A DNA stretch of 21,358 nt from Escherichia coli (GTDB lineage Bacteria; Pseudomonadota; Gammaproteobacteria; Enterobacterales; Enterobacteriaceae), in NCBI RefSeq assembly GCF_003334765.1, contig NZ_QOWT01000048.1; one strand, given 5' to 3'. This document shows, piece by piece, positions 15,001-21,000 of the stretch. How positions within the stretch are numbered: position 1 is the stretch's first letter; every line of letters starts with the position of its first letter. A program made the position numbers.

Positions 15001-18000
15001 CTAATTTTCAGTTGAAAATGGGGAGTGCTATTATATTAACTAATGTATAGGGGGATTTTTAGAAATAATAAAATAAATATTGGCGTTGAACAATAACGCC
15101 AATATCGTGGTGAATATGATTTGCTGACTGGCAATATTAACGAAGGGTTAAAACTCTCTGAAAAGAGAGTTTATCATTAGTATGGCTACATAGAAGTTAT
15201 GTCATAGCAATATAAAATAGCTTTTATTAGCTTTTAAAATAAAATCCTGATGAATATAATGTGCTGAAAAACCCTATCATATAGATATTGATACGAGTTA
15301 TCAAGCGCTGTTTAATCTGATTGCGATATACGTCCTTCCTGAATATCCTTGCACTTTACTGATATATTAACGTCTCTCTCAAGAAATATGAGTTCATTTC
15401 TAATGATATTTTACTTCCTTCTTTTGTTATACATCAATTGTACAATTAGATGTATATAATAAAGTGTACTAATGTATTCTGATATTATTAATTTTATAAT
15501 CTCTTTTTCGATGTCTTGTTTTAATTCCATATCATCCCCACATAAAACACAGAGTTAACTCTATCACTTACCCCATTACTGGCCCGCTGCCGCAGATATT
15601 CCCGTGGCGAGCTTCATGGAAGGAGATCACTCAATAACGTCCATCGAGATCGGGTAATAACCCTCTGTGTCAGCATAGTTGTCGCCTCAATTTTTTAAGG
15701 AGATAACAATGCTAGGTGAACTCAAAGAGAAAGGACTGATATGGCTTTGCCACCATACTGCTGGTCACATCGTCAGATAGCCCGTAAGCTGAAGATAGAC
15801 TAGCCCCCAGAATCTCCAGACAACCAATATCACTTAAATAAGTGATAGTCTTAATACTAGTTTTTAGACTAGTCATTGGAGAACAGATGATTGATGTCTT
15901 AGGACCGGAGAAACGCAGACGGCGTACTACACAGGAAAAGAGCGCTATTGTTCAGCAGAGCTTTGAACCGGGAATGACGGCCTCCCTTGTTGCCCGGCAA
16001 CACGGTGTGGCAGCCAGCCAGTTATTTCTCTGGCGCAAGCAATACCAGGGGGCTGAGGGCCAATGGAACGAAAACGTACGTTAAGAGCATAATTTGTTGT
16101 TTGTATTGAATTTAGTAATAAAGCCCGTGGGGGCTTTTTTATGGTGTGCCGGGCATGCTCAGCAGCTCGGGGGTGAAAGTCCCCTGTCCAGCCTGATGGT
16201 GGCGAAGGACTCGTGAAGCGCAAGGGTGCCGTCGTGAGGCGGGATCTGAAGGAAGCGTGGAGCAAAACCATGACCTGACGAACAGAAATCCGATATGAGG
16301 CCTACCCGGCTGGCGGAGCAAGCCATTGATTGCAAAGGCCATAACCATCAAGAGCCGGGGTGGTAGATTGGGCAGGTGTGTGGTGAAAGCGGCTGAGCTT
16401 ACCCCGGGAGGCCTGTCTGGCGTTCTGTATTCAGAACTGAGCGTACCGTAAGGTGCGCTGACCGGCGGACAGGAGTCAGCAGAGGGCATAGTAGGACAGG
16501 CGCGTCTGAAGGCCCGAACGGTAATGAGTGACGAGTATCAGCGGAGGTTCTGAACGGTCATGCAGCAGAAAACGTATCGCGACCCTGATGCAGGAAGACG
16601 GGGTGAAGCCCCTGACGCCGGTTCTCAGGGGGCTGAAACCGTGCAGGCACCGACGACCAGAGAAAGTCCATCGTCAACAGCGTGGCTGATGGAAGCCATC
16701 TGCGAACCAGTCAACCTCAGGCATGCCCTGAAAAGAGTGAAGGCCAATAAAGGTGCGGCGGGAGCCGACGGCATGAGCGTAAGCGAACTGCCGGACTATC
16801 TGAGACACCACTGGCCGGAACTGAAAGCGCAACTGCTGTCCGGCAGCTACCGCCCATCCCCTGTAAGAAGAGTGACTATCCCGAAGCCCGGCGGCGGCGA
16901 ACGTCTGTTGGGCATCCCGACGGTGGTGGATCGCTTTATCCAGCAGGCGATGATGCAGGTGTTGCAGGCACAGTGGGATGCGACGTTCAGCGACAGCAGC
17001 TACGGGTTCCGGCCCGGACGCTCGGCGCATCAGGCAGTGAAGCAGGCTCAGAAATACATCGAGTCGGGCTACAGCTGGGGGGTTGACCTCGATCTGGAAA
17101 AGTTCTTCGATCGGGTGAATCACGATGTACTGATGAGCCGGATAGCGAAACGAGTATCGGATAAACGGGTGCTGTCACTTATCCGCGGGTACCTGAATGC
17201 AGGTGTGATGGAAGCGGGTCTGGTAATGCCGGTGACAGAAGGGACGCCGCAGGGCGGCCCACTGTCGCCACTGTTATCGAATCTGCTGCTGGATGACTTC
17301 GATAAGGAACTTGAGAAACGCGGCCTGAAGTTCGCCCGCTACGCAGACGACTGTAATGTGTATGTGAAGAGTGAACGGGCAGGCAACCGTATGATGGCGG
17401 GGCTGACGCACTGGCTGAACCGGAAACTGAAGCTGAAGCTCAACGCGAAGAAGAGCGCGGTAGCGCTTCCGGAGACGCGTAAGTTCCTGGGTTACAGCTT
17501 CAGGAGGGGCAGAAAGGTGTGGTGTGTGGTGTCGCCGGAATCGGTGAAGCGGTTCAAAACCCGGATAAGAGAACTGACGGGGCGTAACACGGGCAAAAGC
17601 CTAGAGCAGCTTATCGAACCGTTAAAGCGATATCTGACGGGATGGAAAAGCTACTATGGACTGAACCAGTGGCAAACGCTGATGAGAGATCTGAACAGGT
17701 GGATAAGGCGAAGGTTGCGAAGTGTCCTGTGGAAACAGTGGAAAACGGGCAGCAAGCGCTTCAAAGAGTTGCGCAGACGGGGAGTAAGCAAAGACCTTGC
17801 AGCGCAAACGGTAGGGAGTTGCCATAAGCAATGGCGGATAAGCTGTAGTCCGGCACTGAGCATAGCACTTCCCAATCGCCTGTTCGTCAGACTGGGCCTA
17901 CCGGAGTTATAGGCAGGCGACGATAAACATAACCGAACTGCCGTATACGGACCCGTATGTACGGTGGTGTGGGAGGAGGCTAATCGTGAGATCAGCCCCT

Positions 18001-21000
18001 ATCCCGATCTCTCACCATAAGAGTGGCGGTGATTATTAACCATAAAATAAAACGCCTACATCTTGAAAATTCTGCCTCCCCCCCAAGATCAAAAAAGATA
18101 CAACACGATAAGGTGAAAGTATGTCCAGAGCAGAATTACTGCGTGATATTGAAGCAATTATTTCTGGGGCAGGCTTTGAGCTAAGTAACTCAGAAGCTCC
18201 GATGACGTTTAAAAAAAATGTCAGTTATCCTGGTCTGATCGCGGGAAAGAATGAAATAGCCCACTTCCTGTTGTTCACTAATACCGGTACCGTTCAAATA
18301 ACGGCTAAATGGCAGGAAGTGAGTGGTACCGCAATAGAGAAGCTAGGCCACACAGTTCTTGATGCACAACACACACAACATCAGAGTTATTTCGTTGTCT
18401 GTGGCGGAGGAAAGCTGGTAACAAGAGCCATTGATTACTTAAACGCCCATCGAACATTAGCTCCTCGTCTTAGAGCAATGCAAGTAAAAGAACTGGAATC
18501 AGCATTGGAAGAAATCATCTAAGGCCCTACGGGGCTTTTTATGTCTGAAATTTCGAGCACCTCTCCTCGAAAGGTGTCACGTATTGCGTAGAAAATATTA
18601 GTTAATTGTGTGAATATTGGCCTATTCTGCCTTCCCTTCTTCCAGAATTTTATAAACCGTAGAGCGGGCTATACTTAACTGACGGGCAATTTCTGTTGCT
18701 CCTGTACCTTTCTGGTGCAACGCCAGCACAGAACCTCTGTCCACTGAGCGTTTACGGCCAAACTTAATACCTTTCATTTTTGCATCCTGTCGGCCTTCAT
18801 TTGTACGCTCCAGTATCCTCCGGCGTTCAGCTTGTGCCACTGCGGACAGAATGGTCACCACCATTTGTCCCATATCACCATCTGTACTGATCCCATCGTC
18901 AATAAATCTGACGGCGACGCCCTGAGCGTCAAATTCCTTTATCAGTTGGATCATATCGGCGGTATCGCGGCCAAGACGGTCGAGCTTCTTCACCAGAATG
19001 ACATCACCTTTTTCTACTTTTACCCGCAACAGATCCAACCCATCCCTGTCTGTAGAACTGCCGGATGCCTTATCGGTAAAGATACGGTTTGCTTTTACAC
19101 CTGCATCTTTGAGCGCTTTGATCTGAATATCGAGAGACTGCTGACTGGTTGATACCCGTGCGTAACCAAAAAGTCGCATAAAAATGTATCCTAAATCAAA
19201 TATCGGACAACTAGTGTCTGTTATAATAAAAAATCGATTTAATAGACACATTAACGGCACTGTTTTCATATGTCTGATAATTTATGATATATCAGACAGT
19301 GACTTCACTAACGTACGTTTTCGTTCCATTGGACTTCAGACCCCAGAATTTATTCGTACCAGCTATGGATACGTTACGGGCAGTGATTTTTCGCGCCAGA
19401 CAGCTATTTCTTTGCTGTCCGGTTAACAGCGGTCTTACGTACAGGTTGCCGAGCGCAAAATTTGTGCATTCCGGAAATTTCGGTGGTTGCGGCTTGGTAC
19501 CCCTTTTATTGTTACAGGAGGCTTGGGCTTGTCTGCTACCGGTCAGGACGGGAGGGACACCGGAATTTGAATCCGGTTAACTGAGCCGGACATACGGTAA
19601 ATAAGGAATGCAGGCAGAACGGGAAGCACTGCAGGATGAGACAGTAGTCTGGAAGTACATCAAAATTGCAACAATAGTACGCTATTGCGTGACGTAGATT
19701 CGTGACGTATAGTTACTACAGCTTATTTGTATATAACCACCATCAGGTACAAAATTATGTCTCCCGCACAAGCTAAACAAAAGCAGCATGAACGCTACGA
19801 AGCCGTAGCGGTGCAGGTTTTGCGTGGTCGTGCCGGTTACAAGCCTGCCGTGAAAAGCCGTTTCAGTAAGTCAGCCAATAGCAAATTCTCCCATACTATC
19901 GCTTTTGCCTGATCCTGAACTTTGAGGCACAATAAACCATCATTCGCTGATGGTTTTTTTATGCCAGTTCAAGACGTTATTCCCCCCTATGAGCAGATGT
20001 ATCTGCTAAATCAGCAGTTGATCTGCAACGCTGACCAGCTCAAACATGCCGTTATCACAGTTGGCGGCCAGGCTGTGCAATATTGGATATCCTATTATCA
20101 TGCACAATACGGCGACAGATTGCCTGATGAGCGTCTCACCACTTCTGTTGACTGCGACTACAGTGCCCGGAAAGATGATATTGCGGCTATAGCAAAAACG
20201 CTCAACGTGAAAACGTGGGAAAACAAAGACGGTCAGCCCCCATCCCTTGCGCAGTTTATGCTTATCGATCAGGACACACACGATATCAAACGGGATGATG
20301 GACGTTTATTTGCCGTACCGGATGCGCCTGACGAGCCAAATGTGGTGGATATTATCGATCGGCCCGGAGGCTTCGACCGTTCTGATTTTCTGGGGGAAAA
20401 GCTTTACCTGCATACAGCCCCGTTTTATGTAGAAGCAACCGGCCCCAGTATGCCTGAAATGAATGAAAAGGTAAGGGTGTTGAACCCTATCGCCTGTATG
20501 CGATCGCGCTTTAGCAATCTGATTGCCTTGCGCCGTGATGCTGAAATTGAAATTGCGCGAATTAACGCGCTCAAGATTCCGTGTTATTTCTTTCTCATCG
20601 AACAGTTTGATGAACAGCCGTTCAAAGTTGCTCGAGGAATCTTTATGGATTTATGGCGGCTCGCGAATGACGAAAGTTGTCTGCGCCATCAGACCTTCTG
20701 GCATAGTTGGCAGGGGCCACTTCTTGAAGGGCAACAAAGTAACAACATCACTCTGGTTGATGTATTGGAAGGCGTCCATGCATTCCTGGAAGGGCATCTT
20801 GATGACTTTGAAATACCTGAAGCCTTTGTCACCAAAGAATTACCGATAAAGCTCGCACAGTTGCGTGAACGCTGGGAGCGTTATGTGATACTCAATGCTG
20901 AATGGGCAGCAAGAGGGCGCAGGGGATTTGAACGTAATCACCGTGATGACTAGCCTCCTTTGAGCTGAAAGATTTGCGCATGTGCAAATCACCAGAGCAC

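Follow-up and report, generated by a model that had tools for sequence, protein, structure and literature searches.

How does a segment of a virulence plasmid come to be framed by the terminal repeats of Tn3-family transposons and to carry a resolvase gene with its recombination site, while having no transposase gene? The segment in question, called the module here, occupies positions 16048-19344 of a 21,358-nucleotide stretch of Escherichia coli DNA (contig NZ_QOWT01000048.1 of RefSeq assembly GCF_003334765.1). We refer to this whole stretch as the window, and all coordinates are those of the window unless another sequence is named; L numbers are labels of the plasmid and contig sequences that were compared with it. 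The window belongs to a virulence plasmid of the pAA type, from enteroaggregative E. coli (EAEC), with aggR, aap, aar and aatPABCD lying upstream of the module. A first-pass annotation of this DNA had viewed the module either as a transposon that relies on a transposase supplied in trans or as a deletion derivative. The comparisons described below point to a more specific origin, in that the module is very probably a mosaic of two elements, ISEc63 and IS101, that was made by the transposon's own resolvase.

The ends of the module are marked by two inverted-repeat arms of 36 nucleotides each (16048-16083 and 19309-19344) that are 92% complementary. Their 22-nucleotide core, AATGGAACGAAAACGTACGTTA, is present in exactly two copies in the window, one per strand, where 0 are expected from 100 shuffles. 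Both ends are about 38 bp long and begin with GGGG, as is typical of the repeats of autonomous Tn3-family transposons, and they lie in the mutually inverted orientation that a transposable unit requires. The first-pass annotation had therefore been correct in proposing two 38-bp repeats of this family, although its left start (16049) was off by one. Its inventory of the interior is likewise borne out: the repeats enclose a complete group II intron, an open reading frame (ORF) for 133 amino acids (orf133), a serine resolvase gene (tnpR), and a complete res site whose palindromic subsites lie near one of the repeats, and there is no tnpA. The longest ORF in the window encodes 450 amino acids, and none resembles the DDE transposase of about 1,000 amino acids that an autonomous Tn3-family transposon encodes.

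Relatives of the module that lack the intron and carry orf133 together with the same tnpR are present in PLSDB plasmids. An IncN plasmid (L008) holds the complete element, which is 4,473 bp long, has identical repeats, and is flanked by a GTGTT target duplication. Its gene order is orf133-tnpR-tnpA, and its 1,002-amino-acid tnpA product is labelled "Tn3-like element ISEc63 family transposase." We take this element to be ISEc63 on the basis of that PGAP product label and of the ISfinder length; papers that name ISEc63 use the label loosely and leave the element undefined. The layout of ISEc63 is thus inverted repeat, terminator, orf133, tnpR, res, tnpA, inverted repeat. After removal of the intron, positions 16048-19285 of the window match ISEc63 nucleotides 1-96 at 95.8% identity and nucleotides 97-1386 at 99.3%, whereupon the match stops. 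The full element is not present, because nucleotides 1387-4473, which include tnpA and the right repeat, are missing. The window therefore shares with ISEc63 the left repeat, the terminator, orf133, tnpR, and res up to the center of site I, but differs from it by a 1,865-bp intron at nucleotides 96/97, by two substitutions in the left repeat, and by the absence of tnpA and the right repeat.

The left repeat (16048-16085, plus strand; GGGGGCTGAGGGCCAATGGAACGAAAACGTACGTTAAG) is of the ISEc63/Tn1000 type, and its two differences from the canonical sequence GGGGTTTGAGG are at position 5 (T>G) and position 6 (T>C). ISEc63 belongs to the Tn1000 subgroup of the Tn3 family and is closely related to Tn1000 (gamma-delta), and the repeats of the two are identical over 35 bp (35/35). 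Tn1000, which is 5,981 bp long in plasmid F (L014 4191-10171), also shares the divergent tnpR-res-tnpA layout of the parent element and the same res architecture. However, it carries a 698-amino-acid passenger ORF instead of orf133, it has tnpA, and its TnpR is only 79% identical to that of the module. The low TnpR identity and the different passenger gene rule out Tn1000 itself as the parent.

The resolvase gene (18622-19179, minus strand) encodes 185 amino acids and retains the N-terminal motif YARVSTSQQ with the catalytic serine intact. Its product is 99.5% identical to the TnpR of ISEc63, 90% identical to that of Tn2, and, as noted, 79% identical to that of Tn1000. The adjoining res site spans 114 bp (19185-19298) and is complete, with three palindromic subsites: site III (19185-19209, 25 bp), site II (19215-19248, 34 bp), and site I (19271-19298, 28 bp). 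The spacers measure 5 bp between sites III and II and 22 bp between sites II and I, and another 8 bp separate the end of site I from the right repeat. These subsite lengths and spacers equal those of the gamma-delta/Tn3 res, and the module retains the resolvase and three-subsite res of a Tn3-family transposon.

The rightmost part of the module has another source. When an 83-bp query spanning site I together with the right repeat was used, hundreds of plasmids gave matches of about 88-92%. In three of these sequences (L005, L006, and L007), the match is one end of an ORF-less element of 209 bp with two Tn3-type repeats, and the same 209-bp element in pSC101 (L009 2024-2232) is IS101, a classical miniature member of the Tn3 family. 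Positions 19286-19344 (minus strand) correspond to the terminal 59 bp of such an IS101-type miniature element (TIME), in which 8 bp of spacer separate the right half of site I from the 38-bp repeat; they match the IS101-like element of L005 at 58/59 positions and IS101 of pSC101 at 56/59. The right repeat itself (19307-19344, minus strand; reverse complement GGGGTCTGAAGTCCAATGGAACGAAAACGTACGTTAGT) is of the GGGGTCTGAAGTCC type with site I 8 bp away. It is identical to the IS101-like copies at 38/38 positions but agrees with the right repeat of ISEc63 at only 33/38. Nothing beyond the terminal 59 bp of the 209-bp element, with its two repeats and internal res, has been kept, and the IS101 left repeat and the IS101 sites II and III are gone from the window. 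The view that the two repeats are the proper ends of one transposon is thus unsupported, since related plasmids show them as ends of two different elements, which is the outcome that the first-pass annotation had itself named as the one that would speak against it.

The point at which one parent gives way to the other can be located within site I. Native ISEc63 site I reads TGTCTGATAATTT-AT-AATATTTCGGACG, whereas IS101-like elements have TGTCCATTATGTT-(TC/CT/TT)-GATATATCAGACA. In the window the site is TGTCTGATAATTT-AT-GATATATCAGACA, and the spacer and repeat beyond it are those of IS101. The crossover point is therefore placed at 19284-19285, where the central AT represents the last ISEc63-type bases, and position 19286 is the first IS101-specific base. 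Serine resolvases make their cuts and exchange strands at this central dinucleotide (PMC13367494). Similarity between ISEc63 and IS101 around the junction is insufficient for RecA-type homologous recombination. Furthermore, the fused site I is symmetrical (TGTCTGATA...TATCAGACA) and lies within a canonically spaced res next to an intact tnpR.

The same switch has taken place in other transposons. Three hybrids in which bla-tnpR-res of Tn2/Tn3 is joined to IS101 (in pFORC43, in pMCR_915_E1 and relatives, and in pBA92_2) change from one parent to the other at the same dinucleotide. From one outer repeat to the other, each spans exactly 1,913 bp, and each consists of the Tn2/Tn3 right repeat, blaTEM-1, tnpR, and res, joined at the center of site I to an IS101 end (L004 1671-3583, L011 7972-9884, and L019 1795-3707). 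These hybrids are found in at least three plasmid contexts, and none has a target duplication. Recurrence of the switch at one point in three Tn2/Tn3 hybrids argues for resolvase-catalyzed recombination between res sites and not for random deletion.

One of these plasmids, the O104:H4-type pAA plasmid pFORC43 (L011), bears on the history of the locus directly, for its IS101 half-site is the variant with the GTGAC spacer that is seen in the window, and its right flank also agrees with that of the window. In its corresponding region (L011 877-9884), the junction between IS2 and the left repeat and orf133 are also as in the window. However, the ISEc63 tnpR has been replaced by IS26, other DNA, and the res-tnpR-blaTEM-1 segment of Tn2, and the half-site is joined to the Tn2 res. 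The hybrid res at this locus has therefore been reused as a recombination site, and the arrangement points to the swapping of cargo there. The intron region of pFORC43 holds an IS66-family element.

The DNA on either side of the module was then considered. On the left is an IS2-like 5' fragment (15796-16047, plus strand) that comprises the left end and the first approximately 54 codons of insC, is 95.3% identical to the IS2 of plasmid F over 254 bp, and is cut off at the left repeat. A coding sequence labelled "transposase" by PGAP (15887-16084) runs from this fragment into the repeat. The boundary reads CAATACCA followed by GG, and because this GG (16048-16049) is common to both sides, the junction is ambiguous by 2 nucleotides. 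The 3' part of IS2 is not in the right flank. That flank (19345-19900, plus strand) is neither IS2 nor contiguous with the left flank, and an Escherichia plasmid (L012) carries it uninterrupted (...GTAAGTGAGAAT followed directly by TTATTCG...) in an unrelated region, adjoining lldPRD. The pentanucleotide AGAAT next to the right repeat is for this reason the probable original target of IS101. IS2 on the left and non-IS2 DNA on the right are the flanks predicted by a res-by-res deletion of an ISEc63 copy in IS2 with an IS101 element further along.

These observations can be accommodated by a short series of events. A complete ISEc63 would have inserted into a copy of IS2 on a pAA-type plasmid, and an IS101-type 209-bp element, which is essentially a res site between two inverted repeats, would have been present elsewhere on the same or a fused molecule. 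TnpR would then have recombined these elements through their res sites, with the exchange taking place at the central dinucleotide of site I. Provided that the sites lay in direct orientation, the reaction would have deleted tnpA and the right repeat of ISEc63, the 3' portion of IS2, all DNA in between, and the left part of IS101. What is left would be the 5' part of IS2, ISEc63 nucleotides 1-1386, the last 59 bp of IS101, and the old IS101 target, in that order. Either before or after the recombination, a class-C-like intron would also have inserted behind the terminator hairpin near the left repeat. The earlier idea of a deletion derivative was thus right in spirit, although tnpA appears to have been lost by site-specific recombination at res and not by an ordinary internal deletion. 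Similarly, insC is indeed truncated at the left repeat, as the first-pass annotation had stated, but the cut is better credited to the ancestral complete ISEc63 than to the module.

A rival explanation, which was the main reading of the first-pass annotation, is that a nonautonomous Tn3-family transposon entered the plasmid as a unit by means of a Tn1000 or ISEc63 transposase acting in trans, and we consider it unlikely. Such a transposase would find both repeats to be of types used by the Tn1000 enzyme, and a comparable hybrid, TIME-RES, transposes at 7.8e-5 (PMC4133298). Full-length ISEc63/Tn1000-type tnpA genes occur in 170/5,426 complete E. coli genomes, and helper transposases are therefore not rare. 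In addition, a near-identical hybrid of 1,433 bp that lacks the intron and has the same junction is located in another context in the Salmonella Minnesota plasmid pCFSAN017963_01 (L001); 9 derived substitutions are common to this copy and the window, and the two differ at approximately 14 positions. However, 5-bp direct duplications, which the first-pass annotation had proposed as a check, were found neither around the module (TACCA or ACCAG on the left versus AGAAT on the right) nor around the Salmonella copy (ATATA versus TGTGC). A missing duplication is weak evidence alone because none of four complete IS101-type 209-bp copies (L005 3375-3583, L006 3373-3581, L007 3375-3583, and L009 2024-2232) has a perfect 5-bp duplication, which may reflect res recombination of these copies with each other or with other elements. 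The flanks also speak against unit transposition, since the DNA to the right of the module is not the remainder of the IS2 to its left. The distribution of the module does so as well. Several E. coli plasmids, pNORD58_1 among them, match positions 15800-19600 at 99.9% identity, and the plasmid of strain 55989 also matches them with an extra insertion sequence (IS). PLSDB contains nine records with coverage of the module query of at least 80%; the flanks are the same in all of them, and the Salmonella copy without the intron is the one addition. Among the 5,426 complete E. coli genomes, all copies that reach the right repeat share the same right flank, meaning that they represent a single (pAA) context, and copies that end at site I are ordinary ISEc63. 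Thus, neither occurrence elsewhere as a unit in E. coli nor arrival through a transposase in trans receives support from these data. Moreover, the IS101 half-site in pFORC43 at the same locus with another partner is what would be expected if IS101 was already resident there. It is possible that the hybrid, or its parents, reached the second plasmid by transposition in trans, but this route is unsupported.

Two further explanations deserve far less weight. An ordinary internal deletion, whether illegitimate or homologous, might have removed tnpA from ISEc63 and moved the element's own right repeat next to res. The order of inverted repeat, orf133, tnpR, res, and inverted repeat is the one expected from a clean loss of tnpA. 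However, this account is very improbable, for the IS101 type extends from the right repeat through the 8-bp spacer into the right half of site I, the breakpoint is a resolvase crossover dinucleotide that recurs in independent Tn2 hybrids, and a single insertion would not have these flanks. We reject an ordinary internal deletion of ISEc63 as the source of the module because of this IS101-type right end. Alternatively, the repeats might be unrelated ends of two neighboring transposons that form no functional unit, as the two different source elements and the lack of a target duplication could imply. We find this hardly credible, given that the parts are fused precisely inside one 28-bp res subsite, that the resulting site I is symmetrical and adjoins an intact tnpR, and that the repeats are inverted with respect to each other.

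Resolvase-mediated fusion of ISEc63 with IS101, the origin that we favor, has difficulties of its own. The central dinucleotides of the IS101 copies sampled are TC, CT, or TT, and never AT, and such a mismatched overlap should lower the efficiency of recombination by resolvase. The literature also describes the IS101 res as functional but as a poor substrate for the resolvases of Tn3 and Tn1000 (PMC4133298, PMC13367494). An ancestral plasmid with ISEc63 in IS2 and IS101 at AGAAT was not found, although no search was made for this ancestor or for the reciprocal product. Finally, the 9 derived substitutions shared with the Salmonella copy mean that the hybrid reached a second context by a route that the proposed series of events leaves unspecified.

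As read from its sequence, the module today retains tnpR intact and res complete with its three subsites, and it cannot move by itself. We infer that it works both as a hot spot of recombination and as a cassette that resolves cointegrates and plasmid multimers. The Tn1000 transposase mobilizes IS101 (PMC4133298, PMC13367494), and because both repeats of the module are of types that this transposase uses, mobilization in trans is possible in principle. The module could thus be mobilized by a Tn1000 or ISEc63 transposase, although there is no sign of this here.

The intron that interrupts the ISEc63 part is 1,865 bp long (16144-18008, plus strand), and its bounds were set by comparison with copies that lack it, such as the Salmonella copy, which is contiguous across the intron site. 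It begins with GTGTGCC at 16144 and ends with CCCGAT at 18008. The region of ribozyme domains D1-D4 (16228-16514, plus strand) matches Rfam families RF02001 (137 bits) and RF01998 (54 bits). Domain V/VI (17936-18008, plus strand) matches RF00029 with 38.7 bits, which is 1.3 below the gathering score of 40, and ends exactly at the 3' boundary. The ORF in domain IV (16560-17912, plus strand) encodes a protein of 450 amino acids with reverse transcriptase and maturase domains. This protein scores 424 bits against TIGR04416 (cutoff 300), and its Pfam matches are limited to RVT_1 and GIIM, with no endonuclease domain. This combination of ribozyme domains and an internal reverse transcriptase-maturase ORF identifies the insertion as a group II intron, and the intron interrupts no gene.

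Its insertion site lies in the segment corresponding to ISEc63 nucleotides 39-96 (16086-16143, plus strand), which holds a terminator-like hairpin (16120-16137) and a T run that serve as the intron target. In three independent contexts, namely the window, a Klebsiella plasmid whose intron is 90% identical, and a Providencia plasmid whose intron is 80% identical, a GC-rich hairpin and T run immediately precede the GTGTGCC of the intron. Class C (IIC) introns are known to target sites directly after intrinsic terminators (PMC4424553, PMC3522654). Insertion behind terminator hairpins and a protein without an endonuclease domain make the intron class-C-like. The two terminator hairpins of ISEc63 (16119-16139, TAAAGCCCGTGGGGGCTTTTT, and 18520-18540, TAAGGCCCTACGGGGCTTTTT) are 81% identical direct repeats; the intron is present only behind the first, which is next to the left repeat, and not behind the one that follows orf133.

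A separate match to the Rfam Intron_gpII domain V/VI family is found just upstream of aatP at 9444-9515 (plus strand), with 47.2 bits, which is above the gathering score. No reverse transcriptase ORF lies nearby, and the ORFs at 7603-7995 and 8336-9082 have no NCBIfam match. This match is probably a second group II intron fragment that is degenerate or lacks an ORF.

The passenger gene that the module inherited from ISEc63, orf133 (18121-18522, plus strand), is followed by a terminator-like hairpin (18521-18538), in keeping with the first-pass description of an ORF with its own terminator. Its 133-amino-acid product matches the Pfam family PDDEXK_11 (E = 2.1e-9), and a fold match assigns it the PD-(D/E)XK nuclease-like fold with its restriction-endonuclease-like alpha/beta core. 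No match was obtained in NCBIfam, PADLOC, PHROGs, or the sequences of the PDB. The residues that are invariant among 18 homologues include D9, H48, K63, E66, E73, and K74. No canonical (D/E)xK triplet was seen on the central strand, as judged without structural superposition. Homologues down to 57% identity all have approximately 133-138 amino acids, and some, with 81% nucleotide identity, are stand-alone chromosomal genes that lack Tn3 repeats. A homologue with 59% identity is present on marine metagenome contigs (L022-L025, gene at approximately 5001-5417) between DUF4365 and SduA_C (Shedu-type nuclease) genes. A gene for a RecD2-like helicase adjoins, and the neighborhood resembles a defense island.

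The closest known analogue of the module is TIME-RES of Pseudomonas (Szuplewska et al. 2014, PLoS One 9:e105010; PMC4133298), a portable resolution system of 1,186 bp in which a TIME is joined to the tnpR-res of Tn5563. The two elements are alike in lacking a transposase, in having Tn3-type repeats, and in joining a TIME-derived end to tnpR-res of an autonomous transposon, to which, for the module and ISEc63, the sequence is nearly identical. However, TIME-RES encodes a resolvase of 309 amino acids, was captured during transposition, and generated a duplication of 5 bp. The module, by contrast, is enterobacterial, encodes a gamma-delta-type resolvase of 185 amino acids, contains a passenger ORF as well as a group II intron, and has a single TIME-derived end with a junction that can be mapped to the resolvase crossover. 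It also gives no sign of movement as a unit: a duplication is lacking in the window and in the Salmonella copy, and E. coli offers one context. We found no description in the literature of hybrids of IS101 with the res of ISEc63 or Tn2 or of this region of pAA/55989, and a recent TIME survey treats IS101 only as a boundary of composite structures. All components and the mechanism are already established, and the module is a product of ordinary plasmid history and not a new kind of element.

The remainder of the window contains several features that are distant from the module. A full-length match to the Rfam small RNA (sRNA) family STnc490 lies at 729-853 (minus strand; 140.5 bits). IS debris is located at 1247-2098, 2344-2745 (minus strand), and 5986-6896. 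It includes an ORF for a transposase of the IS110 family, a chimera in which an N-terminal zinc-finger part of IS1 is combined with a part resembling IS2 InsC, and a transposase of the IS630 family that is split into two ORFs, likely a frameshift or a pseudogene.

The origin proposed here would explain a recurrent and unrecognized feature of EAEC virulence plasmids, for which PGAP provides only gene labels ("recombinase family protein" and "PD-(D/E)XK nuclease superfamily protein"). The module offers a sequence-level example of how a resolvase and a miniature element may together remove a transposase gene while the resolution system is retained, and the same process would have given rise to the transposase-less blaTEM-1 cassettes in other plasmids. 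More tentatively, and with somewhat less than even confidence, we suggest that IS101-type elements, as partners that bring a res site, may repeatedly strip tnpA from Tn3-subgroup transposons (ISEc63 and Tn2/Tn3) in enterobacterial plasmids, for which we found no description in the papers searched. This would yield resolvase cassettes of fixed length, including the 1,913-bp blaTEM-1 cassette, whose hybrid res would remain active and enable cargo swaps at a fixed plasmid position, of the kind that emerges from comparing the window with the O104:H4-type pAA plasmid. For the contexts of resistance genes, a missing target duplication together with a missing tnpA need not mean random decay.

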